From contig JAIZWK010000001.1 of assembly GCA_021498095.1 (NCBI GenBank), positions 540,001 to 572,000 of the forward strand: a stretch of 32,000 bases of DNA, written 5' to 3'. Positions 561-32,000 of this stretch are shown in pieces. The notes beneath the pieces were generated by a model, which saw nothing but the letters and a program-made list of their open reading frames with translations, was not told where the DNA came from and searched no databases. A program made the translations under genes and the position numbers. Numbering within the stretch: the first letter of the stretch is position 1; each line of letters starts with the position of its first letter. This DNA is from Candidatus Harpocratesius repetitus. Its GTDB lineage: Archaea > Asgardarchaeota > Lokiarchaeia > Sigyniarchaeales > Promethearchaeaceae.

Positions 561-2294
561 TTATAATTTTCTGACTAATTTTTTATTTTTTTTCGATTTA
601 GGCTTCGATTCTGGTTTTTCTACTTTAGATGGTGTTTTATCAACCTCAATATTATCTGAACTTTCTGTATCACTTTCTACCTCAGAAATTTGGGATTTTT
701 GCATTAAACGTATCTTCAATCCTGTATAAGAAGTTGCAAAAACTAAAACTCCACCAATAATTATTCCAATAACAAACATAAGCCAAATCATGGAATTAAA
801 TGTTTTAGTTGTTTCAATTTCAAATTTAACTGGATCGGATAATTCAGAAGTTAATCCATCAGTATCTTGTATGAGAATTTGAACTGTCCATGTCCCAGCG
901 GCTAATTCTGCGGTATTTAATTGGAATTTCTCGGTTTCAGAGTATTGGTAAGGAATAGTATATTGTTTTTGAGTTCCTGTTGCATCATGGGTTAAAATAA
1001 TAGTAATATATGCATATACTTCTTTATTATTTTCATGATTCAAAGCGATAATACTCGCATCCTCATCATCAATTACATCAAACGTGAAATTTAAAACTTC
1101 ATTTTGAGTAAAGCTTAGAGGTTCTCCATAAAAACCATTAATGTAAAATTTATTTACTTCAGGAGCATTATTCTTGAGTTGAATTTCTATGGTTTCACTT
1201 GATTTACCAATTAACGTTTCATTATCAGTTGCATATTCTCTTAATTCAACATTCATTGTAATTACTCCGATATTGATTGTTGTAGGAAAGAGAACTTCTT
1301 TTTCAAATAACCATGAAGTTTCAGTTAAATTTGGTAAAATATCATTGTAATCACTGAAGAAAATAGCAGTTCCACTAATTGGATCTTTAGCAGTGATTGT
1401 GATTCGAAAATTTTCAAAATGACCATCAATATCTGAAGCATTAAGTCGAAGTTTAAAGTTTTCTCCTCGATATACAGGAATACTTGTGGAATTGACTTGA
1501 TTATATATACTTTCGCCGATTTCTAATTGTATTGCATCAATAATAGGATCGTTATTCAAGATCTCAAAATAATATAAATCAACATTTCGTTCATCAGCAT
1601 CCCAACAAGTTGCATTGATGTAATAATTTCCTAGTGCAGTATCATTCGCAATATCATAAGAATACTCAAATACTGACTCGTTGTTTACAAAAATCTCGAT
1701 AGGTGTTGCTGAACCAGATCTATATAAGCTAATCATCCAAGTTAAATCTCCAACAGCTTGTTCAACATCTGATGGGAAAAATTCCATGTTAATTGTTTCT
1801 TCTCGATAATATTCTTCTTTATCTAGTTGAACAGAAACAGATGGCTTATTATTCTCAATAATAAATGAAGCATCTGGATCATTGTTTTCTATTCCACCAG
1901 AAGTTCCTTGAATATAAACATTAGCTTGTCCTGTAATATTATAAGCATCTGGAGTAAATAGCACAGACCAAACTTGAGGATTACTTGTTGTGTTAGCCAT
2001 TGGTAATAAAAGACTAGAATCATCTGCAAAAGTAATATTTGCGTTAAATCCCGGAGAACTTAATAAATGAGAATTATTGAAAGTAATATTCACCGATTGC
2101 AAAACGCGTTTTATAGTGCTACGATCAATAGTGACGTCATCTGATGTGATTTGATCTGCTGCAGATACTGGTTGAGTTGACGCTTGATTATAAGAATGTC
2201 CAGAATATCCGGTCAATGTTGGAAAAATAATTCCAAAAATTGCAATAGAAACAAGAATAGTTATTATTTTCTGATTTTTGTTCATTTTCTTCAC
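561..2294 (-). CDS. Membrane-anchored surface glycoprotein with tandem Ig/cadherin-like beta-sandwich domains
   Basis: Basic N-terminus plus hydrophobic signal/TM (IITILVSIAIFGIIFPTL). Recurrent domain-start motifs NNKPSV, NNDPII and NNAPEV. About 13 N-x-S/T sequons. C-terminal TM (MIWLMFVIGIIIGGVLVFA) followed by an acidic then Lys-rich tail. GTG start at 2294, alternative ATG at 2285. Confidence 0.7.
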   Translation of the reverse strand: MKKMNKNQKIITILVSIAIFGIIFPTLTGYSGHSYNQASTQPVSAADQITSDDVTIDRSTIKRVLQSVNITFNNSHLLSSPGFNANITFADDSSLLLPMANTTSNPQVWSVLFTPDAYNITGQANVYIQGTSGGIENNDPDASFIIENNKPSVSVQLDKEEYYREETINMEFFPSDVEQAVGDLTWMISLYRSGSATPIEIFVNNESVFEYSYDIANDTALGNYYINATCWDADERNVDLYYFEILNNDPIIDAIQLEIGESIYNQVNSTSIPVYRGENFKLRLNASDIDGHFENFRITITAKDPISGTAIFFSDYNDILPNLTETSWLFEKEVLFPTTINIGVITMNVELREYATDNETLIGKSSETIEIQLKNNAPEVNKFYINGFYGEPLSFTQNEVLNFTFDVIDDEDASIIALNHENNKEVYAYITIILTHDATGTQKQYTIPYQYSETEKFQLNTAELAAGTWTVQILIQDTDGLTSELSDPVKFEIETTKTFNSMIWLMFVIGIIIGGVLVFATSYTGLKIRLMQKSQISEVESDTESSDNIEVDKTPSKVEKPESKPKSKKNKKLVRKL

Positions 2295-6289: not shown

Positions 6290-7246
6290 TTAAAGCTTTT
6301 CGGCTTGATCCTTATGTGCTTCGTGTAATGCTTTACGTTCTTCATGCATTAATTCTTTTGGACTATATCCTAAAGTTAGTAGAAGCAAACGCATAGATTC
6401 AACCGCTTCTTTATGATCTGAAATTGTATTAAGATATACAGCCAATTTGAAAGTTTGGAGATACACATTTTTAGCTTTTTCCATATCTCCTAATTTAACA
6501 TAGCATTCACCAATAAAACCTTCTGCTAAATACATTTTCTCTAAATCGCCTAAATTATAAGCAATATTATAAGCTCTCTTAAAATAATTGACAGCAGTAC
6601 TATATTCTTCAAGAATCTGACAAATTACGCCTAAATCTATCAGTGTCTTAAATTGTCGTTCGGGTATTTTTATTTGGATCCAAAAATCAAGGGCTTTTCG
6701 CTTTAATTCTAAAAGCATGTCATACCTTTCGAGTTTTTCATAATGCTCAAGTAATATTTGAATAGTTGCAGCAAATTGCAACTCATCTTCTAGATAAATA
6801 GCCATTTGCAAACCTTTCAAAAGAAAATTTGTTGCTTTAACTTCCTCTTTCATTTTCAGATAACATATTCCTAAATTCTGTAAAGTTGCAATTCTTTCGT
6901 TTAAATAATTATGTGTTTGCCAATACTCGTACGCTTCTTCATTATATCGAAGTGCAAGCCCAAATTCACCCATTTGAATAAATAATGATCCTAAACTCCC
7001 CTTAACATTTGCAATTTTGAATTCATCATGTAATTTCTCATATTCAGATAAAGCTAATAAGAAATATTTACGGGCTTCAGTTAATTTTTCCTTTTTCCAG
7101 TAAAAAATCCCTAAATCAGCTAAGATTAATGCCCGTTGTTCTTGAATTTGTGGGGTTTCATGGTGTTTATAAGTTTCCTTTAATTCTTGTAATCCTAAAA
7201 AAATAGATTGATCTAAATCTTCAAAATTATCCTGCTTTTTACTCAT
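6290..7246 (-). CDS. Tetratricopeptide repeat (TPR) protein
   Basis: Successive TPR-type units (LADLGIFYW..EARKYFLLAL; KGSLGSLFIQMGEFGLALRYNEEA; LQNLGICYLKM; LIDLGVICQIL..AVNYFKRA; EGFIGECYVKLGDMEKAKNVY). Confidence 0.88.
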   Translation of the reverse strand: MSKKQDNFEDLDQSIFLGLQELKETYKHHETPQIQEQRALILADLGIFYWKKEKLTEARKYFLLALSEYEKLHDEFKIANVKGSLGSLFIQMGEFGLALRYNEEAYEYWQTHNYLNERIATLQNLGICYLKMKEEVKATNFLLKGLQMAIYLEDELQFAATIQILLEHYEKLERYDMLLELKRKALDFWIQIKIPERQFKTLIDLGVICQILEEYSTAVNYFKRAYNIAYNLGDLEKMYLAEGFIGECYVKLGDMEKAKNVYLQTFKLAVYLNTISDHKEAVESMRLLLLTLGYSPKELMHEERKALHEAHKDQAEKL

Positions 7247-7344: not shown

Positions 7345-8196
7345 TCACCATAATCCTTCTTTCAAAGTATCAAAACTGCGAATTTTTATACGGTTTACAT
7401 CTTTCTTAAATCTATACTTGACTATATCTTTCAACATGTTTAGATATTCTTCACGTAGTGGCTTTTTAAACTCTTTCTTAAACTTCTTTATTAGATCTTC
7501 TTCATATATATCTTTATTTTCGATTTTTTTTGCAATAAATTCAGCATGTTTAAATATTTTTTCTATCTCTTGTTGCATTATTATTTCTTGAGAAGAATCA
7601 TCTAGAATTGATAAAGCATTATTAATTAAATCCTTCTCGATATTAAGAGATATATGCTCCCAGGGTGAATTTGCTAAAACACCAGTAGGACTTATTACTA
7701 AAGCCTCGCTGATCTGAGTTTTTAAATAATCTTCTTCCTTTATTGTAGAAACTTGGACTAAATTTTTCCTATATATTTCAGGTAAGAACTGATTAAATAG
7801 ATGAGAAATCATTGCAGTCTTACTTTTTTCACTCTCAGTTCGGAGAAAAATAATAGGAAAATTACATAAAATTGCATGAAGACAAGAGCTTAAAGCATAA
7901 TCACCATATGTGGATATTAAATCTCGAATGAATATTTTTCCTTCTATAGCTGCTTTCTTTATTTTGGAAAGATCAATTGCCATATCTATGGATTCATATC
8001 CTCTAATCTTTCCATCATTAGATACAAAAGCAATAAACTCATGTTCGCAACATATCCCAGCATGGACTTGTACCTTTAATGTTCCCATTTTTTTATTCCC
8101 AAACAAATATTTTGGAACAGATATATGCTTTGTTTTATTACAATTTGGGTTAGGACATTCAACTAATACTTCGATACTTTCTTGAGAATCTTGCAT
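7345..8196 (-). CDS. Hypothetical protein with Cys/His-rich (probable Zn-binding) N-terminal domain and a possible DENN-like C-terminal domain
   Basis: CPNPNC...GICCEHEF near the N-terminus. I prefer the ATG at 8196 over 8259 because the extra 21 codons overlap the promoter of the divergent gene. The segment LSSCLHAILCNFPIIFL...ISHLFNQFLP recalls the cDENN core (inference only). Confidence 0.7.
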   Translation of the reverse strand: MQDSQESIEVLVECPNPNCNKTKHISVPKYLFGNKKMGTLKVQVHAGICCEHEFIAFVSNDGKIRGYESIDMAIDLSKIKKAAIEGKIFIRDLISTYGDYALSSCLHAILCNFPIIFLRTESEKSKTAMISHLFNQFLPEIYRKNLVQVSTIKEEDYLKTQISEALVISPTGVLANSPWEHISLNIEKDLINNALSILDDSSQEIIMQQEIEKIFKHAEFIAKKIENKDIYEEDLIKKFKKEFKKPLREEYLNMLKDIVKYRFKKDVNRIKIRSFDTLKEGLW

Positions 8197-8282
8197 TATT
8201 TTTTGTTGTTGTTGGGAAGGAATAAATATTTTTTGGTTAAGGAAGGATATATAGTACAATTACTAATAATGAGCGACTTTAT

Positions 8283-9875
8283 ATGGTAAATAGATTTCCA
8301 TTTGCAATAGAGGAAAAAACCCAACAGGAATTGAGCTTTGATGAGAGTATTGCTGCAAATTTTATCACAATTTTAAATCGGATGAATTTAGACACAGAAC
8401 ACATCGTTAAAATATCAGAAATACTATGGCCAGTTATGTTTATTCAATCTGAACCAAATGCAAAACTCGTTTTAGATAATGTTGGAGTTTTATTTTTTGA
8501 AGAAAAAATAGTAAACGCACCTAGGACTGCCCAAGTAGGTCATATATTAAGAAATCAAGATTTATTTTATTTAGAACGATTAAGAAAAGTAAAATCAATA
8601 ATAAAATTTCAAGAATCAATTGAACTTTCTAGTCAGAAAAGTGAGATTTCACAGGAAGAATATATTTTCAGAAAGATCCGAGGGTTATTTCCTCCATACC
8701 TTTTAAAATGTATTGGAAAGATGATGCTATTCGTTCAACCACTTAATTTAGCAAAATTCGACCTTTTAGAAAGTCAATATACTTTTGATGATGCTATTGA
8801 TTTTGCTCAAGAATGGTTAGATTTGCTTAATTTTATTAGAGGAACCCGACATCGTTGGAAATCACTAAAAGAATTAATCCAGGAACCTATTGAAAAGTGG
8901 AAACTTGATTTAAAAGTCCAACTTAAAGATATTGAAAGTTTTTATAAAAAAAAAATCCGAAATTTTGATCAATTAGATGATTCAATGATTAAATCAAAAC
9001 TAGATGAAGCAAAAAACAATATTGATCGTTGGGTTTTACAAGAGCAAAAATCAATAATTGAACGGATAGGTAAACTTTTCGTAGGAATAAATATCTTATT
9101 TGAAAAAGCAATTGAACAGAATAAAGATTTTCTTCAATTAGATACTTTAAAAACTAGAAAAATTGGAGATGTTGTAGTAAATGCTTATCAAAATATTGCA
9201 TTTCTCAGGGACACTCTAGAGAAATCAAATGAAGAATTAGACGAAATTTCCTCGAAAATTAATACAATTAGAGAAAATGTAGAAAAGACGAATTTAACTG
9301 CAGAAGAAAAAATTAAATTACTTCAAAAAGAATTGCAAGATCAAAAGAAAAACCAAGAACAAAAGATTATGGATCTAAAGAAAGAAAAAGAAGAAAAAAT
9401 CATCTCAATCCAGAAGAATCTAAATAATTTAATTGAGTTAGAAAAAGAGATTTATCAAATAATTGAACAAAAGATGACGGAATGTAATATCCACGAGAAA
9501 AAAATCAAAGAATGGCAAATTAGTGATGAAATAACAAAAATTCGAAATCCAACAAGTAAATTTTACATTCCTATTGGAATTGCATTGATTGAAGATAATG
9601 ATTTTGAAGAAAGGTTAGAAATAGTATTTCCTTCCATTTTTGGTCAGAATCTTCATAGAGAATATTTCTCTGAAAAAATTCCAGAGTTTGAAAAATCCCT
9701 TTCTGAAATCTTAGAAGAAAATATGAAATTGCGCAGTAATTTTGAATTTACATGTGAAAAGTCTCAAGATTTTAAGAAAAACATTCAAAATGGAATAAAA
9801 AGTCTATTCAACAAAGGGTTGATTAATATAAAAATGAAACAGAAATATACTTCAATTCTTACTTCAATGGAATAA
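8283..9875 (+). CDS. Hypothetical protein with long central coiled coil flanked by globular N- and C-terminal segments
   Basis: Heptad-rich E/K/Q/L region at about aa 180-410. Beta-containing termini (EILWPVMFIQ; KFYIPIGIALI). No Walker motifs. Confidence 0.8.
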   Translation: MVNRFPFAIEEKTQQELSFDESIAANFITILNRMNLDTEHIVKISEILWPVMFIQSEPNAKLVLDNVGVLFFEEKIVNAPRTAQVGHILRNQDLFYLERLRKVKSIIKFQESIELSSQKSEISQEEYIFRKIRGLFPPYLLKCIGKMMLFVQPLNLAKFDLLESQYTFDDAIDFAQEWLDLLNFIRGTRHRWKSLKELIQEPIEKWKLDLKVQLKDIESFYKKKIRNFDQLDDSMIKSKLDEAKNNIDRWVLQEQKSIIERIGKLFVGINILFEKAIEQNKDFLQLDTLKTRKIGDVVVNAYQNIAFLRDTLEKSNEELDEISSKINTIRENVEKTNLTAEEKIKLLQKELQDQKKNQEQKIMDLKKEKEEKIISIQKNLNNLIELEKEIYQIIEQKMTECNIHEKKIKEWQISDEITKIRNPTSKFYIPIGIALIEDNDFEERLEIVFPSIFGQNLHREYFSEKIPEFEKSLSEILEENMKLRSNFEFTCEKSQDFKKNIQNGIKSLFNKGLINIKMKQKYTSILTSME

Positions 9876-13502: not shown

Positions 13503-14069
13503 ATGAGCCCGCTTTCAATAAAAAATAAATTAAAACGAGATCAAAATAAGTACATACATCAAAAAGTAGATGTAATTGTAACCAAGGAATTTCCTTCTTT
13601 TCATATTTTGGGAAAGCACATTGGTCCGTTTAAATTAGGGCATCCAATGACAATCGATCAATATATTGCACGAATTTTAGTTGAAGAAGGAATTGTTAAA
13701 TTTGATGATACTAAGCATTTAAATCGAAAAGGAATTCAGAAAATTAATTTTCAAGAATCTACAAATCCTGAATTGGGAAAAATCGCTGAAAACTTTATTT
13801 ATACACAAGCACGAGAACAACTGGAGATCATGAATAAACTCTACGAACAAGGAAAAATTCCACGACAAGAGTTTAAACAATTGCTCAGTGATGTAAACGA
13901 TTTAATTCGCGTCCGTTTAGCAAAAATTAACCGGCTTGCCGTACAAACGGGCAGAAGTCAATCTGAACGCAATTTAACGCAAGAAGAACGCATTCTTTTT
14001 GATGAAATTGCAAGCAAAATTAATGAATGGAAAACTGCTTTAGGAAAAGTTAATTCGAAATATAATTGA
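13503..14069 (+). CDS. gins23: GINS complex subunit, Gins23 (Psf2/Psf3-like) type
   Basis: N-terminal beta B-domain (VDVIVTKEFPSF...GPFKLG...IARILVEEG), followed by a helical A-domain ending RLAKINRLA...LTQEERILFDEI...W. The B-before-A order defines the Gins23 class. Confidence 0.8.
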   Translation: MSPLSIKNKLKRDQNKYIHQKVDVIVTKEFPSFHILGKHIGPFKLGHPMTIDQYIARILVEEGIVKFDDTKHLNRKGIQKINFQESTNPELGKIAENFIYTQAREQLEIMNKLYEQGKIPRQEFKQLLSDVNDLIRVRLAKINRLAVQTGRSQSERNLTQEERILFDEIASKINEWKTALGKVNSKYN

Positions 14070-17415: not shown

Positions 17416-19851
17416 ATGGCTCTTTTGCTTTCTGCAGAAAAAGTAGATGAATTTTTCGGGATAAAATCATCCATGTTTAAAAGGTTTAGATCTTCGATTA
17501 ACTTAAAGCAGAAAGAAGATGCTATCTTTCAAGAGAAATTTAACATTGGATATAAAAAATGGAAATTATTCTTCCGATCTTTCTATAGTGAAGTTAATTT
17601 AAGTAGAAATCTCTATTTTCTTCATATTTATTGTGTAATTCTGGTAAAAGGTTTGCAATTTATTTTTTTTTCTACTTATTATTTTAACGATATAACAGAG
17701 AAAATGAAAGAGGAAAAGAAAGATAACAAAAAAGTGAACAGGAAAAATATTACTAAATTAAATGATTTTTTTCCAGAAATATTCGATTTAGATTTTTTCT
17801 CTTGGATTTTTCAAGATAATCAGTTGTACTCATTAATTCAAAACCTTTTTCAAGCAGATTGTTTTTATCGACTCAAGAATTCATCAATATCAATTCCTTC
17901 TGATTTGTTTCATGTTTTTTATCAAAATTTAATCAGTTCAGAAGTTCGCCATAATCTGGGAGAGTTCTATACTCCACCTGAACTAGCAAATCAAATGATC
18001 AAAAATCGCTATAAGTTTGGACTAAAAATTATGGATCCAGCATGTGGAACTGGTGTATTTTTAATAGAAATTATAAAAGAAATAATCAACAAATCAGATC
18101 GTTCAAAGAAAGATAAATTAAGTGCTCTTAAACAAATCTATGGATTTGATATTAATCCTATTGCATGTCTTTTTGCCAAATTGAATTTTCTACTAACTCT
18201 TCACTTTCATGGGATAGAATATCCAATTAATGAACTTCATATTTATAATGAAAGCGTACTGTTTTGGAAAAACAAGTTCTTTCCAATATCTATGATACAA
18301 AAGAAGTTTGACTTAATAATTGGTAATCCTGCTTGGATCACAGTGAAGAGTATGCAGGATTTAGAATATAAGGAGCAAATAAAAAACCTTGCGAAAATAC
18401 TGGAATTAAAACCAACTACTCATCAAATACCTAATATTGAAATCAGTGCACTTTTCTTTTACCAATGTCGAGATTATTTGGTAGTTAAAGGTAAAATAGG
18501 ATTTATTGTAAGTAAGGCTTTTATTAATGGAAGCAATCATGCATTAACGCGGAAATTTACGGATTTTGATGAAATTTCAATTTGGACTTTTGATAAAAAT
18601 TTATTTCCTATATCAAATATATGCTTATTTGCAAGATATAATCCTCCTTTGAGAAGAACCGAAGAAGAATTAAAAGAATTACAAATTGAAGAAATTCAGT
18701 TTCAAATTGAAAAAATAGGACAAAGCTTAAGAATTAAACAATTAAATCGTATTTTCTTGGTTCCGTACAGAATTGAAAAGCATAAAAACCAGCTGCTGGT
18801 TACTAAATTAATAGGATTAAAAGAAAAAAAGGCATTAACAGAGCTACTCCCTCACGGAATAAATCAATATAAGAATTCATGCTATCGTGGAGCAGATATT
18901 TTTCCCCGTGCTTTACTTTCTGTCTTTCCAAAACAAAGTTCTTCTGGTAGGATATTTATTCAACCTATAACAAATGAGTCTAAATTGACTTGGGATTTCG
19001 ATCTTGAAAAAAAATTGGAAGAATTCCCCGAAATAATTAAAAAGGGAAAAATTTTCATGGATTCTTCTTATATTTTTCCTGTTTTGAAAAGTAAACACTT
19101 GGTCCCCTTTACATATCTTTACTGGGATTATGCTTTTATTCCCATCCAGGAAAATAAAAAGACGGGCGGGTATGCTCGTATCTCAGAATCAGAAACATTA
19201 GCTTGGCGCTATTATCAAGTCTTAGAACAAATTTTCCAACAAAATTTCAAAACAGGTGCATCTATTCGGACTTTATGGGAAAGAATGAACTATCATAATA
19301 ATTTAATCCAACCTAGGCATCGAAGTCCGTATAAAGTTGTTTATCAACGGAGTGGATCATATGTAAAGGCTTGTATTATTAAGGAACCAAAAGTTATTGT
19401 CGATACAACTAACTATTTTCTTGCTTTCTCAAATTTAGATGAAGCATATTATGTATTAGGCTTCTTAAATGCTCCAGATTTAACTAAAGCTATTCAAATC
19501 GAAAAATCTGCGCGTGATATTCACAAGCTTCCCTTTACATTCTATTTACCCAAATTTGATCCAGACGACCAAAACCATCAAAATCTTATAAAACAAGCCC
19601 AGATCATGGAGAAAAAAGCTAAACAAATCGCCTTATCTGCAGTTAAATCCTTTTTAAATAAAAATCAAGCAGAACTGAAAATTACAGAATTCTATAATGT
19701 ACCCGTTTTAAAGACAATTAAAGCGCGCCAAATTCAATCCCAAATCTATAATTCCTTAGGTTGGAATCCAAAAAAAGATAGCATTTCTGAAGATTTTGAA
19801 AAGTTGAATCATCTTGTTCGGTTAGTTGTTTCTGAAAATAAGAATAGTTGA
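17416..19851 (+). CDS. N6-adenine DNA methyltransferase (type IIG/Eco57I-like MTase plus target-recognition region), no evident nuclease domain
   Basis: LGEFYTP, SAM-binding motif I (IMDPACGTGVFL), YGFDINP, motif IV variant IIGNPAW, and a C-terminal TRD-like region (YKVVYQRSG...EAYYVLGFLN...RDIHKLP). Confidence 0.88.
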   Translation: MALLLSAEKVDEFFGIKSSMFKRFRSSINLKQKEDAIFQEKFNIGYKKWKLFFRSFYSEVNLSRNLYFLHIYCVILVKGLQFIFFSTYYFNDITEKMKEEKKDNKKVNRKNITKLNDFFPEIFDLDFFSWIFQDNQLYSLIQNLFQADCFYRLKNSSISIPSDLFHVFYQNLISSEVRHNLGEFYTPPELANQMIKNRYKFGLKIMDPACGTGVFLIEIIKEIINKSDRSKKDKLSALKQIYGFDINPIACLFAKLNFLLTLHFHGIEYPINELHIYNESVLFWKNKFFPISMIQKKFDLIIGNPAWITVKSMQDLEYKEQIKNLAKILELKPTTHQIPNIEISALFFYQCRDYLVVKGKIGFIVSKAFINGSNHALTRKFTDFDEISIWTFDKNLFPISNICLFARYNPPLRRTEEELKELQIEEIQFQIEKIGQSLRIKQLNRIFLVPYRIEKHKNQLLVTKLIGLKEKKALTELLPHGINQYKNSCYRGADIFPRALLSVFPKQSSSGRIFIQPITNESKLTWDFDLEKKLEEFPEIIKKGKIFMDSSYIFPVLKSKHLVPFTYLYWDYAFIPIQENKKTGGYARISESETLAWRYYQVLEQIFQQNFKTGASIRTLWERMNYHNNLIQPRHRSPYKVVYQRSGSYVKACIIKEPKVIVDTTNYFLAFSNLDEAYYVLGFLNAPDLTKAIQIEKSARDIHKLPFTFYLPKFDPDDQNHQNLIKQAQIMEKKAKQIALSAVKSFLNKNQAELKITEFYNVPVLKTIKARQIQSQIYNSLGWNPKKDSISEDFEKLNHLVRLVVSENKNS

Positions 19852-20103: not shown

Positions 20104-20619
20104 ATGACGCTTTCAAAAAAAAGTAGGACATTAGTTATTATAGGAATAATAATTACAGTTCTTGGAGGAACTGGAACCTTTGGCGGCTTGTATTATCGAG
20201 CAGTTAACCAAATTGAAGTGGATGTAGAACATATTTATATTACGAATTATAGTATAGGAGGAACTCTACTAAATCCAACAATGGATGTAAGCTTAGAAAT
20301 TAATGCTTTAATCTCTAATCCAACTAATATTGCTGTTGAAGTAGAGTATGCCCAATTTGAGATATATCTTGATGGATTATACTCAGGAGATGGTCAGACA
20401 TCTTCATTTACAGCCACAAAGACCCCTTCTCCTATGAAAATAAATACTTTCTTAGATGATATTGGTGGTTCCCAATATTTACTCTTAGCTGATCTCATTT
20501 TATTGGGGAATTCAAAAGTTGCTACAATTCGAATAACAAACGTGAAAGTTATGGGGATAATTGTTGAAATCAACCAAGATATTAATGTTACAATCACACA
20601 AGAAGACTTTCTTTTTTAA
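20104..20619 (+). CDS. Membrane-anchored LEA_2/WHy-like beta-sandwich protein
   Basis: Basic N-terminus, single TM, then LEINALISNPTNIAVEVEYAQFEIYLDGLYSGDG, matching the LEA_2 pattern (V.NPN...I......Y.....G..G). Confidence 0.65.
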   Translation: MTLSKKSRTLVIIGIIITVLGGTGTFGGLYYRAVNQIEVDVEHIYITNYSIGGTLLNPTMDVSLEINALISNPTNIAVEVEYAQFEIYLDGLYSGDGQTSSFTATKTPSPMKINTFLDDIGGSQYLLLADLILLGNSKVATIRITNVKVMGIIVEINQDINVTITQEDFLF

Positions 20620-23909: not shown

Positions 23910-24098
23910 GATTAAAAAATTTACAAGCAATTCGTTCAATCCAAAATAATCTTCAAATGCTGATAACCCAATCCTTGATATACAATACTCTTCATTTTGG
24001 GATTTTAAAGCATTTTGCAGGCATAATTCAGAATTTTCTAATCTTTTTTTTGAATTAAAATGTAGTTCACCAAGAAATCTTTTAGTAAATTTTTTCGC

Positions 24099-26180
24099 CT
24101 ATTTTGATATTTTCACCATATCAAGATCCATTTTAAGCAATTCTTGCAAAAATACATCAAAACATCCAACATTCCCAGAGAAATTAGCGAGTTCTTGCCT
24201 ATAAATATCATAAAATCGGTGATAAATAAAGGATAATACTTTTTTTGATTCATCAACTGTTGAATAAATCGAACAACGGCCTAAAATGAAAAATTCTTTA
24301 TCTGGTTCCAAATAAAAATCAAATCGGCTTTCTCCCATCTGAATACTCTGGATCTCTTTTTTAGTAAGTTCTTTACTAAAATTTTGAAGAGCTGAAAGAA
24401 ATCCACCTAAAAGAATAGAATCAAAAGAAAGTTCTGGTGCATATGTAAATAATTCGATCCCACTACTGCTGAATATCCATAAATCACGTAAAATACCCAA
24501 TTTTGATGTCTGTTCACTCCTTCTCGCCAATAATTGTTCCTTTAACCTTTCTTTTTGCCGAAGATAGTAATTTTTTTTTTCTACATCATCATTATAAATT
24601 ATAATTAAAAGATCCAAAATTTCTTCCATTTCCACAACGGGTTTATTTATTTTTTTATAATGATTAAGCGCAGTAATTAATTCTATTATAGCTTCTTGTT
24701 TTTGTTCCGAAAGAAGAAGATTTTTTCCTAATATAAGATGGAATTTTGCAATAGATAAGCGATCTAATAAAATAAAATTTGCTGTATCTTGCATGAAAAA
24801 CTGCAGTAAATTAACATTTTGTTCGAAATGTCCAAATTTTTCGTGAATTTGAACAATTTGAAGTAGAAATCTAATTTTATTAGAAAAATCATTCATATTT
24901 TCACAAGAATCGATGGTTTTTTCAAGATAATACACTTGTTCAGAATAATTATCATCAAAACTATAGATTTGCGAAATAAGTGGATAAATCATGATCAATT
25001 GGTTATAATCTTTTAGTTTTTCCCAGATTTCTGCAGCTTGGGCGAGATATTCAAGAGAATTTTTTAACTCTGAATTTTCGTGAATGTTTATTTGCTGCCA
25101 TTTTTCAATTCCTGCATTTTTAATGGAATCTATTGCGCGGTAATAATATTGCAATGCTAAATGATAATTAATTAACCCTTTTTGTTTAAGCATATTTTGA
25201 CTAAGATCTTGAATTTGATTAGAGTTGAAAAATTGATTTGATTTAATAAATTCCTCTATCGCTTTACTATAAAGATTCAATTTTGAATAACTTCTACCAA
25301 GGATGAAATGATATTGATAAAATGAGATATATTTAGCTTTTTTAAGTGAAATTGATTTTAGTTGTTTAATTGCTTTGGAATATTGAAAACTTGAATATAG
25401 AGAAAAGCCCAATAAAAATTGGCTTGTTTCGAGATACTTTTGGTGATTTAATTGCTTTGCAATAGGAATCAATTTCTGAAATATGTTTACCGCTGCATTA
25501 TATTTCTTTTCTTTAATTATCATTGTCCCCTTAAGATAAAGTGCTTCCATGTAAAGCTTTTCATGATTTTCCATGCTAAACTTTTCAAGAGGTTTTTGAA
25601 GTAATCTGTACGCATATTTGAAATTTCTATTTTGAAACTCTACAAGAGCTTTTTTAAAATCCTCGACAGCGACAGAAAAAGAATAATTTGAATCAATTTG
25701 CACTTCTGATTCCAGTGATTCTTCTAGGGATTGGTAAACTTTTAAGAATTTTGGGATAATCTCATCAGATGAAATGATGTCTTGAAATTTATCAATTCCT
25801 TTAAGCGTGATTTGTAAAGCAAATTGCTCTATAATTTCGTCATATTCCGGAAGAAGATGTTCTGAGTATTCATCGGGAAAAACAACAGCAATACAAAATG
25901 GCTGCCAATTCATTGAAAATGATTCTTGCTTTGTGTGAATAAGTACTCTTCCCCTTATTTCATATAAATTAAAGGGAATTGAAATGTTAAAAGAAGAGAA
26001 ATCGCTCCAAAATTTCTCTAATAATAGTGATTTTGCATTTAGAAATATTTGGCGAGTAATTATATTTGGATTTCCAAAATTCCATGGGTTTGGTTCTAGT
26101 AAATCGATTTTAGGACCTTCATTTTCATCCCAATGAGCAAAAATCACTCCAAGATGAGCCTTTTGTGAGATTTCTGTCAA
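24099..26180 (-). CDS. Longin-like domain, TPR array, C-terminal longin domain (eukaryotic-signature-type protein)
   Basis: N-terminal LGVIFAHWDENEGPKI...PFCIAVVFP is uDENN/NPR2-type longin-like. Central TPRs (LYLKGTMII..AAVNIFQKL; FLLGFSLY; HFILGRSYSKL; HLILGKNLL). C-terminal LWIFSSSGIELFTY...LLGGFLSALQNFSKEL...FYDIY...F.G....F..F is the classic longin/sedlin-like pattern. TTG start with AGGAG about 10 nt upstream. Confidence 0.75.
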   Translation of the reverse strand: MTEISQKAHLGVIFAHWDENEGPKIDLLEPNPWNFGNPNIITRQIFLNAKSLLLEKFWSDFSSFNISIPFNLYEIRGRVLIHTKQESFSMNWQPFCIAVVFPDEYSEHLLPEYDEIIEQFALQITLKGIDKFQDIISSDEIIPKFLKVYQSLEESLESEVQIDSNYSFSVAVEDFKKALVEFQNRNFKYAYRLLQKPLEKFSMENHEKLYMEALYLKGTMIIKEKKYNAAVNIFQKLIPIAKQLNHQKYLETSQFLLGFSLYSSFQYSKAIKQLKSISLKKAKYISFYQYHFILGRSYSKLNLYSKAIEEFIKSNQFFNSNQIQDLSQNMLKQKGLINYHLALQYYYRAIDSIKNAGIEKWQQINIHENSELKNSLEYLAQAAEIWEKLKDYNQLIMIYPLISQIYSFDDNYSEQVYYLEKTIDSCENMNDFSNKIRFLLQIVQIHEKFGHFEQNVNLLQFFMQDTANFILLDRLSIAKFHLILGKNLLLSEQKQEAIIELITALNHYKKINKPVVEMEEILDLLIIIYNDDVEKKNYYLRQKERLKEQLLARRSEQTSKLGILRDLWIFSSSGIELFTYAPELSFDSILLGGFLSALQNFSKELTKKEIQSIQMGESRFDFYLEPDKEFFILGRCSIYSTVDESKKVLSFIYHRFYDIYRQELANFSGNVGCFDVFLQELLKMDLDMVKISK

Positions 26181-26255
26181 ATCAATGAACTCCTTTTAGT
26201 TAAGAAAAAAAAGACTAATAAAATAATTTGTTTTTAAAAAAGATTTAATCTTTAA

Positions 26256-29000
26256 TTAGATAAATTTATTTAACCGTTCCAATATTTGGCTATAGAGTTC
26301 AACAGTTTTTTCGATGTCTCCTTGATCCAAGGTATTCTGAGCTTCTCTTGAGAGATTATCTACAAGAATCTTCAAATTTTCGAATTGAGTCATTTCAATC
26401 ATTTGATATTCATGTAATATTTCATTTTCTTGCGGGATTTCTTTAAACGCCCATTTAATCAATGCACCAACTTGTTGTTCATTTTGAGCTTCAGGAAGAA
26501 TGTTTTTTGGTAATTTTATTTGATAATGATAAAAAGTAGGGATAATATCTTCAATTATTACACCTAAAATTGCTTGTGGAAATTTATTTTTGAAATACAT
26601 TGTTGCTTTGAACAACCCCTCATGGGAATAGGTTTTAATTCTTGTATGGGTTTTAATAACCTTTAGTTGATTCTTTAATGGAACTAAAACAGTTCGCGAT
26701 ACACGTTGCCGTAATTCATAATTTATTGTAATTGATTTTTTTACAGGGATATCATTTAATTTCCAATGAAGAACCAATCCTTCTTTCTGTAATTCTTCAC
26801 TTGGTTGAATTTTCTTTTCGATTCCATCTATTGTTATATCTGAAATTTCAAAATTATAAGGAATAATGTCTTCAATAATAGCTTCGGCAATAGCATCGTT
26901 AAATGGATTTTCAAAACCAGAATTCACCCTAAATGGAGAAATTTTTGAAGTTTCTTCAGAATTTTTATTTAAATCTGGAGAATACATAGATATTTGTGAT
27001 TTTGATTTAATTTCCATTGTTTCACCTGATTTACTTGTAAGTAATAAAGAACTTTCCATTTCTTTCTTAACATCTACACGTTGTTCATCTAATAACGCGC
27101 CTATTTGAGCAAAAGCTTCATTTATATCATCTGATAAGTTCGGTAAAATATCTTCTAAAGATAAATCTTCAACTAAAGGAAGGACATTTTTCTCTACCTT
27201 GATTATTTCTTCAACTTCTTTGGCTTTTTCAAGTAATTTTGTCTGTTCTTTGTTATGTTGACTCAAAATCTCCTCTATTTTCGTCAAAGCAAGTTTTTGG
27301 AGATCATTATATTTATATATCTCGCCATCTTTTTCAATTAAAGGAAGAATCTCTATAATACGCTCCGTATTTCGTTTCAATGCCTGCCATTGAAGATTAT
27401 TCTTATTTTCTTTAATTTCACTGCGAAGCCGATTATATAAAGATAAGTTTTCTTCATAAGCTGCCTTTTTTTTCTCTATTGATCTTTTTATTTTCTCTAA
27501 ATGTTCTTTATTTTCAGGAGAATTAGATAGAATTTCGTTAGAAAGAAAAATAGCAAGATCACTAAGAATTTTATTATATTGCTTTTGGTTTTCCAGTTCA
27601 GGAAGGATTTCTTCCCAAGAATTAATCTTTTTAACCAAATCTTCCAAGAGCTTAAGATTAGTTACTCTTTCATTGATTTGATCTCGATAATCCGATACAT
27701 CCTTTTGTAATTCTTCGTCTTTTGTTTGTAGCGCAAATAAATAAAGTTTTTCCACATGGCTAAAAGTTTCTGGAAACTGATGATTACTCAAAAATTGTTC
27801 TATTTCTTCTTTTGCATTTTGTATATATTCTATATTTTTATTTCTTTTTGATTGTGTCTCTTTTTCCTGTTTAGTCCATGCATCTTTTAATTCTTGTAAT
27901 GTCTCTTTTTCCTGTTTCCATCTGATTAATTCAGAAGAATGATTGGATGAATTAAGAAAATCGATTATTTGATTAAGAGTTTGAAATGCATGCTCATATT
28001 CATGCTTATATTTTGCATCTTCATAGCGTTCTTTAAACATTTTTAATTTTTGATTAAATTTCTGCTCCTCTTTTTCCCATAGTTTATAATCATCCTCAAT
28101 TTTATCAATTTTTTCTTTGATTAAAGAATTAATTTCTAATTCAGGAATTTCTTCATGAATTCGTAATATTTTCTGACCAATTCGATGAAGATCCTTTAGA
28201 TTTCTTTCAGGAAAAAGTGCTTCAAACTGTTCTAAGAGTTCTTGAAAATCTTTTTTTTGTCGTAAGTAATTATCATAAAGTATTTTTTCAGAATTTAATG
28301 AACGTTGGAATTTTGAAGGTATTGATTCATTGAAGAGAATGGAATAATATTCGCGAATCACCTCAGAAGTATTATGAGCATCGATAAATTTTTTATCCTT
28401 AATTAGAGAGTCAAGCTTTGCAATCATATGGGGAATTTGGCCCTTAATCTCAGATTTTCTTGATTTCAAATCTTTTACACGAAGAATTTGTTCTTTTAAT
28501 TTAGTGTATTCTTCAATAATATCCCAATCATAAATTTCGCGGGCAGTTTGAATAAGTTGTTCGATGTAATTTAATGCAGTTTCGAAATTACCTACATTTT
28601 TGGCTGATGTAATGTTAATCTTTAAATCACTCAGAAAAGCATATTTCTCAAGACGGAATTCAGCCCACCTTCTTTGTTTTTTTCTAATCAAATCTTGATC
28701 AAGTAGTGTATCTGCCCAAAAATCACTTGATTCATTCCCTTCATCCACTGTAAAATGACGAATTATCGATATGTCTGGGTTCTTTTCCAATATTATTTTT
28801 TCTGCTATCGGAATTGAATTTTTTAATTTTTGTCCTGCATTCTTTCCTATCCAAATATAAAGTCGCCTTTTTTCATTATGGTATAAATAAATTACATTAA
28901 CAGAAATTAGTTTCGATGGGAGATCATCTAAATCCAATTCTTCAATTTGTCCATCAGGTTTGAGAATATACAAAAGAAGATTTTTTGATTTACTATTCAT
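26256..29000 (-). CDS. Gelsolin-like domain, helical-hairpin/coiled-coil repeats, two cytosolic Ig-like domains, terminal helical hairpin
   Basis: N-terminal LISVNVIYLY..RLYIWIGKNA...VDEGNESSDFW matches the gelsolin repeat pattern (L.S.DV...YIW.G....EG.E..eF). Two IEDIIP...W..I....Y units lie 107 aa apart. No signal peptide or TM. Confidence 0.75.
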   Translation of the reverse strand: MNSKSKNLLLYILKPDGQIEELDLDDLPSKLISVNVIYLYHNEKRRLYIWIGKNAGQKLKNSIPIAEKIILEKNPDISIIRHFTVDEGNESSDFWADTLLDQDLIRKKQRRWAEFRLEKYAFLSDLKINITSAKNVGNFETALNYIEQLIQTAREIYDWDIIEEYTKLKEQILRVKDLKSRKSEIKGQIPHMIAKLDSLIKDKKFIDAHNTSEVIREYYSILFNESIPSKFQRSLNSEKILYDNYLRQKKDFQELLEQFEALFPERNLKDLHRIGQKILRIHEEIPELEINSLIKEKIDKIEDDYKLWEKEEQKFNQKLKMFKERYEDAKYKHEYEHAFQTLNQIIDFLNSSNHSSELIRWKQEKETLQELKDAWTKQEKETQSKRNKNIEYIQNAKEEIEQFLSNHQFPETFSHVEKLYLFALQTKDEELQKDVSDYRDQINERVTNLKLLEDLVKKINSWEEILPELENQKQYNKILSDLAIFLSNEILSNSPENKEHLEKIKRSIEKKKAAYEENLSLYNRLRSEIKENKNNLQWQALKRNTERIIEILPLIEKDGEIYKYNDLQKLALTKIEEILSQHNKEQTKLLEKAKEVEEIIKVEKNVLPLVEDLSLEDILPNLSDDINEAFAQIGALLDEQRVDVKKEMESSLLLTSKSGETMEIKSKSQISMYSPDLNKNSEETSKISPFRVNSGFENPFNDAIAEAIIEDIIPYNFEISDITIDGIEKKIQPSEELQKEGLVLHWKLNDIPVKKSITINYELRQRVSRTVLVPLKNQLKVIKTHTRIKTYSHEGLFKATMYFKNKFPQAILGVIIEDIIPTFYHYQIKLPKNILPEAQNEQQVGALIKWAFKEIPQENEILHEYQMIEMTQFENLKILVDNLSREAQNTLDQGDIEKTVELYSQILERLNKFI

Positions 29001-29139: not shown

Positions 29140-32000
29140 ATGACTTATATTAAACGAGTAGTAATGACGGGTTTCAAATCCTTTGGAAACCGAACAGTAT
29201 CAGTTAATCTTGCCAAAGGTTTTACATGTATTGTCGGACCAAATGGAAATGGTAAGTCCAATGTTATAGATGGGCTTTGTTTTGCTTTAGGGCGTCTGGC
29301 AAAATCGACTATGCGGGCAACAAAACTAACAGACTTAATCTTTGCGGGTTCCAAAAAGGTAAAGCCCGCTACTCGAGCAGAAGTTGAAATAGTATTTGAT
29401 AATAAAGATCGAGTCTTTCCTTCAGATTCTGATGAATTTAAGGTCTCTCGATGGATTAAACGGAGTGGAACTAGTGGCTACCGAATTCAAGGGAAAGCTT
29501 CAACCCGAACAGCTATTCTAAATGCTCTGGCTCAAGCTAATATTGATCCAGATGGTTCAAATCAATTTGTTCTCCAAGGAAAAATTGTAGAACTAACCCA
29601 TATGAGCCCAAATGCGCGTAGAGAATTCATAGAAATGTTAATTGGACTAAGTAAATATGATGAAATGAAAGATAAAACATTAAAAGAGTTAGAAAAAGCA
29701 GATAAAGATTTGGGACAATTTGAAGCAATTTTCAAAGAAGTATCAGTTCAATTAAAAAAAGTGGAAAAGGAAAAAAATGATGCTTTACGATGGAAAGAAC
29801 TTGATAATCAGGTAAATCTTTTCAATGCACAACTGATTGCCTTAAAGATCCATAAAATGCGCCAAGAAGAAGACGATATTGCCACAGAAATGGAATCCAC
29901 TCAGTTGGTGATTGAGGATTTAAAAAATCGAATTCAGCGCCAAAAAGATAAAATTGAGGCAGAAGCACTCTACTTAAAAGGTCTTGAAGAGGATATTTCT
30001 GCACAAGAGACAGAAAAATCCAAAATGGATGAAGAAATCACTTCTCAAAAATCAGAACTTTCAGCTAAAGAAGCAACTTTAAAAGCAACTGAAGAAAATT
30101 TAAAACGGCTTCAGCAAAATATCGAGAAATTAGAAGATCTTCAGCAAAAACTGGAAGAAGGTCAAACTTATGATGATTTAATTAACAAAACAAAAGAAGA
30201 AATTGAAAATCTTCAGCAAGCTTTAGATGAAAATTCAGGATTAATTGATGAAAATAAAGCGAAACAGAAAGAAGAAGAACAAATAATTGCACAAATAAAT
30301 AATGAAAAAGCCCAAATTAATAAAGAAATCTCCAAAATCAAACAGGATGGTAAAGCTTTAACTACTGAAATCAAGCTTTTGGAAAAAACTATTAAAAAGA
30401 ATGAGAAAAAGAGAGCTCAACTAGAAAAAGATTTGAAAAAGTTACAGAAAGACGCAGAAAGTGTAACTGAAGCGATGGAACAAGCAAAAAATGAAGCCAA
30501 ATCCATTCAAGAAAAAATTTCAACATTGAAAAAGCAAATTACTGAGCAAAAATCACTACAAAAACAACTTGATGGAGAAATCCAAAAGCTAGAAGTAAAA
30601 CGTGACAAATTTTCGAAATCACAAGCAGAAATTCAAGCTTCCATCTCTTCTGCAGGTGCAGAAATTAACATGCTTGAAACCCGTATACAAGAACTTGAAA
30701 AGAAGAAAAAAGATTATAGAAACGAGTATGAAAAACTAACAAAAGGCCAAGCAGTTGAAGACCAAATCAAAACTTTAAAAGTCGAAGAAAAAGAAATCTC
30801 ACAACAGTTAAAAAAGCTTAAAGAAAAACTTATTTCCGCAAATGATGAGCAAAAACGAAGTCAAAATAAACAAGAAACCTTGGAATTGAAACGACGAGCA
30901 TTAGAAGGAGAATTGACCGACCTTGAAAAACGTCTTTCTGGATTACGTGTTGAACTAAAAACGGCAGAATCAGAACTTCATACTTCACAACGGGAAAAAC
31001 AACATAAAGATATTATCAAAGAAAATTTAATAAAAGAAATTACAATCCAAAAAGAACAAAAAGAGAAATTGCAAAATCAAGTTGAAAATTTTCAAGCTAA
31101 AATAAACCAAATGAAAAAAGAGCGCGCTAAACTTCAAGAAACAATTGATAAAAAGGAAGAAGAATATGGTCAAACTCAACTTGAATTAAACACAGTACTC
31201 GATAATCTAACGAATTTGATTCAAGATATTGATCGCTCTGCAGGTGATATCAAATCTGATATTCAAAATGTTAGTCAAGTTGCAATTGATGAATCAGGAA
31301 AAGTTTTCAAAGAATTTGTGCTCGATGTCACCGATATGTTGCGATCTATAGAAGAAATATCAGAAATGAATCCTGAAGATCCAAAAGAAATCCAGGAACA
31401 ACTGAATTTTGCAGTAAATACTTTAAAATTATTAATTGAAAATGCAGAACAACCACTAATTCAACTTAATGAAGTCGTTCAAGATGCTAGTGATGAAGCA
31501 TTAAAAGAATCTACTGGTAATTTCGATGGATTTATACAAGATTTTACAGATAAATTCGATTCAATTCGTGTTGCTTTACAAGCTGTCGCAGTAGCAGATA
31601 CATCAGAACATTATCGAGCATTAGAGGATCTGAATTCTGCTATTAGTTCCCAATCTGAAGAGCTCTCGAAAATATCAGTTCAGCTAACTCGAATCACAGC
31701 TCAACTGGAACAAAAAGAACGTGAATTATCACAAATCAATTCGGAATTAAAACAGTTACAAACAAAAATTGATGAAGCAGAGAAGAAATCTAAAATAGGT
31801 AAAAAAGAAAATGAAGAAAAAACCAAAAAATCTGAAGAAATAAAAGAAGAAATCGCAAAAATAACCTCCACAATTTTAGATATAAAAAAATCTTCTGAAA
31901 ATTTTTGGAAACATACAAAATCCCTACAAAATGAAATCGATAAAAAAGCAGAAATTCTTTCACAAATTACTGAAGATCTAAATAAATTGAGCAATGTAAA
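29140..32000 (+). CDS. smc: SMC-family chromosome segregation ATPase (3' partial; absent from the ORF track), atypical long arm with no canonical hinge visible
   Basis: Hand translation gives 953 codons without a stop: MTYIKRVVMTGFKSFG...Walker A IVGPNGNGKSNVIDGLCFALG, R-loop MRATKLTDLIFAG, VFDNKDR, Q-loop FVLQGKI, then coiled coil from about aa 170. Confidence 0.93.
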   Translation, partial: MTYIKRVVMTGFKSFGNRTVSVNLAKGFTCIVGPNGNGKSNVIDGLCFALGRLAKSTMRATKLTDLIFAGSKKVKPATRAEVEIVFDNKDRVFPSDSDEFKVSRWIKRSGTSGYRIQGKASTRTAILNALAQANIDPDGSNQFVLQGKIVELTHMSPNARREFIEMLIGLSKYDEMKDKTLKELEKADKDLGQFEAIFKEVSVQLKKVEKEKNDALRWKELDNQVNLFNAQLIALKIHKMRQEEDDIATEMESTQLVIEDLKNRIQRQKDKIEAEALYLKGLEEDISAQETEKSKMDEEITSQKSELSAKEATLKATEENLKRLQQNIEKLEDLQQKLEEGQTYDDLINKTKEEIENLQQALDENSGLIDENKAKQKEEEQIIAQINNEKAQINKEISKIKQDGKALTTEIKLLEKTIKKNEKKRAQLEKDLKKLQKDAESVTEAMEQAKNEAKSIQEKISTLKKQITEQKSLQKQLDGEIQKLEVKRDKFSKSQAEIQASISSAGAEINMLETRIQELEKKKKDYRNEYEKLTKGQAVEDQIKTLKVEEKEISQQLKKLKEKLISANDEQKRSQNKQETLELKRRALEGELTDLEKRLSGLRVELKTAESELHTSQREKQHKDIIKENLIKEITIQKEQKEKLQNQVENFQAKINQMKKERAKLQETIDKKEEEYGQTQLELNTVLDNLTNLIQDIDRSAGDIKSDIQNVSQVAIDESGKVFKEFVLDVTDMLRSIEEISEMNPEDPKEIQEQLNFAVNTLKLLIENAEQPLIQLNEVVQDASDEALKESTGNFDGFIQDFTDKFDSIRVALQAVAVADTSEHYRALEDLNSAISSQSEELSKISVQLTRITAQLEQKERELSQINSELKQLQTKIDEAEKKSKIGKKENEEKTKKSEEIKEEIAKITSTILDIKKSSENFWKHTKSLQNEIDKKAEILSQITEDLNKLSNV

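Follow-up and report, generated by a model that had tools for sequence, protein, structure and literature searches.

The 32,000-nt window analyzed here (positions 540001-572000 of one 4.36-Mb contig, with a G+C content of ~30%) comes from Candidatus Harpocratesius repetitus; Harpocratesius belongs to the Promethearchaeaceae, a Lokiarchaeial lineage of Asgard archaea (NCBI taxonomy). On its minus strand lies a gene that we call LTL, for longin-TPR-longin, whose product consists of three parts: an N-terminal longin of the FLCN/C9orf72 type, a solenoid of tetratricopeptide repeats (TPRs), and a C-terminal canonical longin. The reading we favor, at a probability of roughly 0.55, is that LTL belongs, as a subunit, to a Lokiarchaeial module that regulates small GTPases. 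The gene, its parts, and the partner gene that stands upstream of it are the following.

24099-26180, minus strand: LTL gene, 693 amino acids (aa), TTG start, stop included (one 92%-identical NCBI protein, 33 or more full-length relatives)
26190-26193, minus strand: GGAG, a ribosome-binding-like motif 9 nt before the LTL TTG (direct reading)
25701-26153, minus strand: N-terminal longin of FLCN/SMCR8/C9orf72/NPRL2 type, residues ~10-160 (AlphaFold2 model; Foldseek, VIA and atlas matches)
26112-26132, minus strand: WD-x3-GP motif (W17 D18 E N E G22 P23) in the β1-β2 turn, with the W33-D34/G38-P39 spacing of C9orf72
25905-25931, minus strand: β4-β5 loop KQESFSMNW, residues 84-92, no arginine, where most clade-A relatives have xVRGGxQP
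24537-25658, minus strand: TPR/α-solenoid, residues ~175-548 (Pfam and TTC29 matches; edges set by the end-domain models)
24126-24494, minus strand: canonical C-terminal longin, residues ~563-685 (AlphaFold2 model; Foldseek and VIA matches; profile matches to MON1 longin domain 1 (LD1) and Bet5)
26256-29000, minus strand: partner gene X, 914 aa, 75 bp upstream of LTL and co-oriented with it (homology to X of other LTL loci)

The LTL frame runs for 693 codons from a TTG at position 26180, and the closest database protein, a 693-aa ‘tetratricopeptide repeat protein’ of Candidatus Harpocratesius sp. with 92% identity, has the identical start. The original prediction, made from the sequence alone, was that two different longins bracket a TPR region, and this was confirmed: both end domains model as longins, and Pfam TPR_12 scores above its threshold between them. 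The motifs that had been quoted in support are present at either end, F14..W17 D18..E21 G22 P23.I25....P30 in the N-domain and I569 F..S G574 I.LF ... LLGGFLSALQNFSKE in the C-domain. Both recur in the family, where W17 is kept in 39/40 sequences, G22 in 38/40 and P23 in 27/40, and where W568, G574, G593 and F594 are invariant or almost so.

Each end domain was modeled separately with AlphaFold2, using alignment A2 for the N-domain (40 sequences) and alignment A3 for the C-domain (75 sequences). The N-domain model (residues 1-172; predicted local distance difference test score, pLDDT, 85; predicted template modeling score, pTM, 0.80) contains strands (E) and helices (H) at E11-18, E22-29, H38-58, E64-70, E75-85, E92-102, H107-127 and H141-160, which is the longin order β-β-α-β-β-β-α-α. 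Its best Foldseek matches are chains of the GATOR1, FLCN-FNIP2, SEAC, Lst4 and C9orf72-SMCR8 structures, joined by a Lokiarchaeota longin that is part of a Roadblock-Longin protein (PDB subunits are named, here and below, from chain lengths and residue ranges). This last longin, 8yqg, a dimer in its solved structure and of the same archaeal class as LTL, heads the exhaustive VIA search (Z 13.9, root-mean-square deviation 2.7 Å over 138 residues), but it shares only 9-13% identity with the LTL N-domain, and its partner domain is a roadblock rather than TPRs and a second longin. VIA Z is 12.5 for 6nzd_H (FLCN complex), 12.3 for both 7o2w_A (C9orf72-SMCR8) and Lst4 (4zy8_C), and ~10-10.6 for GATOR1/SEAC chains (8fw5_B 10.6), against at most 9.8 for generic longins (TRAPP, VAMP7, AP/adaptor). 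Foldseek and VIA thus rank FLCN, SMCR8/C9orf72, Lst4 and GATOR1 above generic longins, which upholds the earlier assignment of this end to the NPR2/folliculin type; in the Foldseek comparison with NPRL2/FLCN that had been proposed as a check, GATOR1 and FLCN-FNIP2 chains are among the best matches. In the ESM-Atlas, the N-domain matches clusters named SMCR8 and C9orf72 at a template modeling (TM) score of 0.71, an NPR2 cluster at 0.64, an archaeal cluster of which part carries Pfam Folliculin, and, at TM 0.75, 341-aa Arf-family GTPases that form an archaeal cluster with 274 members.

In the N-domain model, G22-P23 sits directly at the start of strand β2. A GP motif is specific to the longins of the GTPase-activating protein (GAP) type, namely FLCN, NPRL2, SMCR8 and C9orf72, and C9orf72 has an essential W33-D34 three residues ahead of its G38-P39 (PMC12290439). 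GP together with an arginine finger, which neighbors the GP motif, is the hallmark of FLCN, NPRL2 and SMCR8 and is also found in Asgard ‘FLCN/SMCR8-type’ longins (PMC12290439), so the class to which the LTL N-domain belongs is already published. The ‘NPRL2-like longin’ of Liu et al. (bioRxiv 10.1101/2020.10.19.343400) is of the same class, again with GP before β2. After the N-longin of LTL come the TPRs and the second longin, with no DENN module or NPRL2 C-terminal domain.

The C-domain model (pLDDT 88, pTM 0.83) also has the element order β-β-α-β-β-β-α-α. Bet5 and Mon1 lead its Foldseek matches, VIA gives Z values of 13.6 for Fuzzy, 13.5 for VAMP7, 12.5 for Mon1, 12.2 for Sec22, 12.0 for BLOC-3, 11.8 for SRX, 11.7 for Bet5, ~11-11.6 for AP sigma/mu and 9.7 for sedlin, and no FLCN-type chain is among the top 50 structural matches. 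The original description of this end as a longin of the sedlin/AP-sigma type was essentially right, with Fuzzy scoring highest, and the proposed Foldseek comparison with TRAPP- and AP-type longins returned canonical longins. When profile A3 is searched against sequences it finds MON1 LD1 (E 9.6e-5) and Bet5 (E 4.3e-3), with Sec22b and VAMP7 weaker; no Pfam longin model reaches threshold, and the isolated C-domain has no Pfam match at all. Many stand-alone homologues of 125-140 aa correspond to the C-terminal ~125 residues in a search of cluster representatives. Because no sequence similarity can be detected between the end domains (hhalign probability 0.3% for their profiles), the longins of LTL are of two different types.

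By profile (Mon1 LD1, Bet5) and by fold (Z 11.7-13.6), the C-domain resembles the longins of Mon1-Ccz1, Fuzzy-Inturned, BLOC-3 and TRAPP (Bet5/TRAPPC1, Trs23/TRAPPC4), and Mon1/TRAPP-type longins bind Rab GTPases as heterodimers. The likeness has its limits: there is no TRAPPC3/Bet3 partner near LTL, and the tri-longin guanine nucleotide exchange factors for Rab (RabGEFs) have three tandem longins per subunit, whereas LTL has two, of different types, with ~375 TPR residues between them.

Within that solenoid, Pfam TPR_12 matches residues 369-426 at 34.1 bits, above the gathering score of 30.1, and reaches ~60 bits in the relatives P0012 and P0019. TPR_2/ANAPC3 matches more weakly at residues 246-311, the best PDB sequence match of LTL is TTC29 (residues 182-345), and a feature-based atlas search with LTL returned only generic TPR clusters. 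A TPR array had been called between the longins, and the TPR_12 match and the extent of the solenoid agree with that call.

A search of 1.84 billion cluster representatives recovered 52 LTL relatives at E<1e-30, of which more than 30 are full-length at 660-725 aa. Among 400 genomes of the phylum, 24 have the family at E<=1e-40, all in the host's own order; by family, matches fall in 9/13 genomes of f1, 12/135 of f3 and 2/4 of f4. No eukaryotic protein with a longin-TPR-longin architecture came up, with taxonomy checked inside the phylum only. A maximum-likelihood tree of the full-length family resolves two clades, A and B, each with 99/98 support. Nearly all members of clade A carry GP and RGG, the latter mostly as xVRGGxQP in the β4-β5 loop; in clade B, nearly all members have lost the P of GP, and there is no RGG. 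Tandem LTL pairs consist of one A and one B copy in 6/6 genomes or contigs. The window LTL is nested within clade A, in a Harpocratesius subclade of three sequences that have SMN or SSV in place of RGG while keeping WD-x3-GP and the rest of the N-domain, at 56-92% identity over the full length.

A second architecture occurs in four metagenomic proteins (P0074, P0075, P0079 and P0091), where a response-regulator receiver is followed by an N-type longin with WDE..GP and RGG and by a C-type longin that abuts it without a linker. Alignment A5 combines the RGG-type clade-A sequences, these response-regulator fusions, and the 341-aa N-longin proteins described below; in it the R of RGG, and likewise the W, D, G and P, are each at least 90% conserved. 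We take the RGG arginine as the candidate equivalent of the arginine finger because the β4-β5 loop adjoins the GP-bearing β1-β2 loop by topology, and the published finger lies beside GP.

In the host genome, a search with the family profile found neither a clade-B copy nor another N-type longin. A paralogue that lacks the N-longin, made up of TPRs and a C-longin in a ~565-aa frame, lies ~25 kb from LTL (C1:590687-592327, minus strand, of genome G000; locus L012). Such N-less paralogues range over 535-565 aa and have an X-like paralogue beside them in six genomes, the host and five others of family f1 (L034-L038). Derivation of the N-less paralogue from clade B was considered and rejected, since a FastTree phylogeny of the TPR and C region, read without support values, places it in clade A near the f1 copies.

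Partner gene X is the steadiest neighbor of LTL. It lies directly upstream in the host genome, at the P0003 locus, in L005, in Lokiarchaeum ossiferum, in L009/L010, and in G134, G278, G153, G174 and G154, and in tblastn searches over the fetched loci it adjoins LTL wherever the flank suffices. Its product is ~850-920 aa across loci and begins with a weakly gelsolin-like segment (~residues 27-63), continues through an extended helical region, and ends in ~400 conserved aa. The Gelsolin match is sub-threshold in two orthologues (E 0.002-0.02), accompanied by a faint hint of Alpha_adaptinC2, and a comparison of X with PDB sequences gave no match. At the P0003 locus, where the X stop and the LTL start overlap, X is 56% identical to that of the window, as is the LTL orthologue. 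In L009, X and LTL have been duplicated together, in the order X, X', LTL', LTL.

The Lokiarchaeum ossiferum locus (L007; CP104013.1, 6.03 Mb, at ~3.744-3.747 Mb) lies in a one-contig genome of the same family as the host. It encodes an X of 847 aa, an LTL of 684 aa and an Arf-like GTPase of 166 aa. Its LTL has the same three-part architecture at 30% identity over the full length, and X stands upstream on the same strand and in the same order (33% identity to the window X, E 1e-148). The Lokiarchaeum ossiferum copy has kept RGG and has its GTPase gene 25 bp downstream, whereas in the window RGG is gone and no GTPase gene adjoins LTL, whose downstream side shows only a 36-aa remnant of another gene.

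Arf-like GTPase genes lie within 1.5 kb of LTL in seven genomes or contigs (L001, G137, G154, G272, G274, G276 and G278), and these LTL-adjacent GTPases match Pfam Arf at E ~1e-26 to 1e-29. The GTPase gene is 25 bp downstream of LTL in G137 and between two LTL paralogues in G154. The same type of GTPase adjoins 341-343-aa N-longin-only proteins of G280 and G281, and Arf-like GTPases are also found fused to a C-type longin (P0069) and to the N-type fold (an atlas cluster). The N-longin-only proteins themselves (L039 1417-2439 in G281; L040 1414-2442 in G280) carry WDE..GP and RGG without an LTL-like remainder, and the GTPase beside them, ~290 aa and convergent with the N-longin-only gene, has a conserved ~115-aa N-terminal extension. 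The predicted link to Asgard small GTPases therefore stands in part: synteny in related genomes speaks for it, and no GTPase gene adjoins LTL in this window.

The published Asgard GP longins (Traffic 2025, PMC12290439, and Liu et al.) share with the LTL family an arginine in the neighboring loop, present in most LTL members, and two-component fusions, seen in LTL-related proteins. Their texts describe no TPR solenoid with a second canonical longin, no X and no A/B tandem paralogues, and their examples emphasize Heimdallarchaeia and Thor, whereas the LTL family is confined to one Lokiarchaeial order. In the searchable literature we came upon no account of the longin-TPR-longin architecture, of the X operon or of the A/B paralogue pattern.

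Longin pairs bind GTPases in FLCN-FNIP, GATOR1, C9orf72-SMCR8, Mon1-Ccz1 and TRAPP. In the GTPase regulatory module that we propose, the longins of LTL would likewise act as dimeric GTPase-binding platforms, the TPR solenoid would hold partner X, and the N-longin of most relatives would probably provide GAP chemistry through the GP motif and the arginine of the β4-β5 loop. Several observations weigh against such a module. At the sequence level, residues 1-170 have no Pfam match even at E 10, including Folliculin PF11704, NPR2 PF06218 and C9orf72-like PF15019 (Pfam Folliculin reaches E 0.0032, under the cutoff, in the related response-regulator fusion P0091), and searches of PDB sequences by phmmer with P0091:150-300 and with profiles A2 and A5 found no longin for the N-domain. 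Judged from longin topology and NPRL2, the RGG arginine is no more than a candidate equivalent of the FLCN/NPRL2/SMCR8 arginine finger, and the window copy lacks an arginine at this site of its β4-β5 loop. As for the GTPase, there is no such gene adjacent to the window LTL, and queries of the host genome with the operon GTPases of L001 and Lokiarchaeum ossiferum bring up no clear orthologue but only generic matches, the best at ~30% identity; the nearest match of this kind (C1:585025-585510) is ~19 kb from LTL and ~5 kb from the N-less paralogue. Across the family, GTPase adjacency is seen at only ~1/3 of LTL loci with readable flanks, and some of it is expected by chance because Asgard genomes hold many small GTPases. 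Since it is arginine-less and has no adjacent GTPase, the window copy is probably a platform or scaffold and not a GAP; judged by its residues and its neighborhood, Harpocratesius LTL most likely works without catalysis alongside X, as a platform or scaffold in the manner of C9orf72 or FNIP, or else relies on a different catalytic residue.

How the longins would pair is a separate question. One answer, the one originally proposed, is that the N- and C-longins of a single chain pack as a heterodimer that forms the GTPase platform, leaving the TPRs as a cargo or scaffold loop. Longins generally act as dimers (PMC10933270), and the direct abutment of N-type and C-type longins in four response-regulator fusions points to a recurrent association in cis. 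We nonetheless consider pairing within one chain unlikely, given that ~375 solenoid residues separate the two longins, that the 535-565-aa paralogues retain the TPRs and the C-longin without an N-longin, and that the A+B tandems suggest that N pairs with N' and C with C' in trans, on the pattern of FLCN-FNIP2, NPRL2-NPRL3 and Mon1-Ccz1. Tri-longin RabGEFs provide a further precedent against it, as their LD1 is not known to pair with its own LD2. A complex prediction of the N-domain (A2) with the C-domain (A3), made without controls, scored 0.00 in both runs and speaks neither for nor against the single-chain pair. The existence of both A+B tandems and an N-less paralogue suggests pairing in trans, which by these comparisons appears more likely than N-to-C pairing within one chain; the trans partner of an LTL longin could come from another LTL molecule of the same kind, from a paralogue or, in genomes of family f3, from the clade-B protein. 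The A+B tandems recall FLCN-FNIP, NPRL2-NPRL3 and SMCR8-C9orf72, and their residues are suggestive, though only suggestive, of a heterodimer that joins an arginine-bearing and an arginine-less longin subunit.

The remaining neighbors of LTL and X are the following.

29140-31998, running off the window, plus strand: SMC_N/AAA_23 coiled-coil ATPase, divergent from X
23940-24047, minus strand: 36-aa stretch with 58% identity to a segment (residues 176-211) of the 288-aa product encoded next after LTL at the P0003 locus (L002 10129-10995)
22721-23791, plus strand: histidine kinase (HisKA and HATPase_c), convergent with LTL

The 36-aa stretch 3' of LTL appears to be all that is left, after decay, of a counterpart of the P0003 288-aa gene. 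The P0003 locus also has an SMC-like gene, of 1490 aa (L002 623-5095), in the same divergent position, an arrangement not seen at more distant loci, and the other LTL loci examined have no histidine-kinase neighbor. Farther off in the window there are an 811-aa methyltransferase of N6_Mtase/Eco57I/MmeI type, probably a type IIG/IIL restriction-modification enzyme (17416-19851, plus strand), a GINS gene with a Sld5 domain (13503-14069, plus strand), and a separate 318-aa multi-TPR protein (6290-7246, minus strand). Pfam scans of several further large open reading frames of the window (561-2294, 7345-8259, 8283-9875 and 20104-20619) gave no match.

These surroundings could be read to mean that LTL is a TPR scaffold with no GTPase role, whose longin-like ends serve in dimerization or ligand sensing and which works in cytoskeleton or chromosome organization with X and the SMC-like gene, or in two-component signaling. 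X-LTL adjacency is indeed far steadier than GTPase adjacency, the SMC-like gene is divergent upstream of X both in the window and at the P0003 locus, response-regulator receivers are joined to this pair of longin types in fusion proteins, the window LTL has a histidine kinase a short way downstream, and the window copy is missing the candidate catalytic arginine. However, the kinase is not seen at other loci, the SMC linkage is limited to the closest relative, and a scaffold of this kind would have difficulty explaining the repeated adjacency or fusion of Arf-like GTPases to both longin types and the conserved GP/RGG signature. We therefore regard it as quite unlikely.

It is also quite improbable that the window copy is still an active GAP or GEF whose function survives without RGG, with catalysis supplied by another basic residue (K84 at the end of β4, R76/R78 before β4) or by an arginine of a partner protein. 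In favor of this, WD-x3-GP and the remaining domain are conserved across the Harpocratesius subclade at 56-92% full-length identity, position 78 is R or K in 27/40 family members, and the arginine of C9orf72-SMCR8 does come from the partner subunit. Against it, the family profile detects no second N-type longin in the host genome, and R76/R78 would, from longin topology, be separated from the GP loop by the length of the sheet.

Returning to LTL as a subunit of a small-GTPase regulatory module, its closest eukaryotic counterparts would be C9orf72-SMCR8 (an Arf GAP), FLCN-FNIP2 (a RagC/D GAP) and the NPRL2-NPRL3 pair of GATOR1 (a RagA/B GAP), all among the best structural matches of the N-domain. 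The window copy shares with these longin GAPs the GP motif and, as in C9orf72, the WD-x3-GP spacing, and the family as a whole shares paired arginine-bearing and arginine-less paralogues and an association with Arf-like GTPases. Unlike them, LTL has no DENN domain and no sequence-level match, and the window copy has no arginine finger. A bolder and rather doubtful extension is that the heterodimeric longin GAPs of eukaryotes have in the LTL family a prokaryotic forerunner or analogue. The FLCN-type longins of an A and a B subunit would then dimerize and turn off the Arf-like GTPase of the operon, the Mon1/TRAPP-type longins would form a further binding or exchange platform, and the TPR solenoids would tie the switch to the gelsolin-like coiled-coil protein and hence to the actin cytoskeleton. 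Were this so, the Harpocratesius copy would be a natural variant, arginine-less and partner-less, that shows the module without GAP chemistry.

Asgard GTPase genes are rarely in operons with longin or roadblock genes, and this rarity makes it hard to match Asgard GTPases to their regulators (PMC10933270). The LTL family offers concrete, conserved gene-level pairings for Asgard small GTPases, whose GAPs and GEFs are essentially unassigned: a longin protein of FLCN/SMCR8 type goes with one particular Arf-like GTPase and has X as its fixed partner. Several genomes also pair arginine-bearing and arginine-less paralogues, mirroring the build of FLCN-FNIP, NPRL2-NPRL3 and SMCR8-C9orf72. Because one LTL member comes from the cultured Lokiarchaeum ossiferum, whether longin GAP complexes predate eukaryotes is directly testable, and the copy in this window adds to the family a natural variant without the arginine and without an adjacent GTPase.

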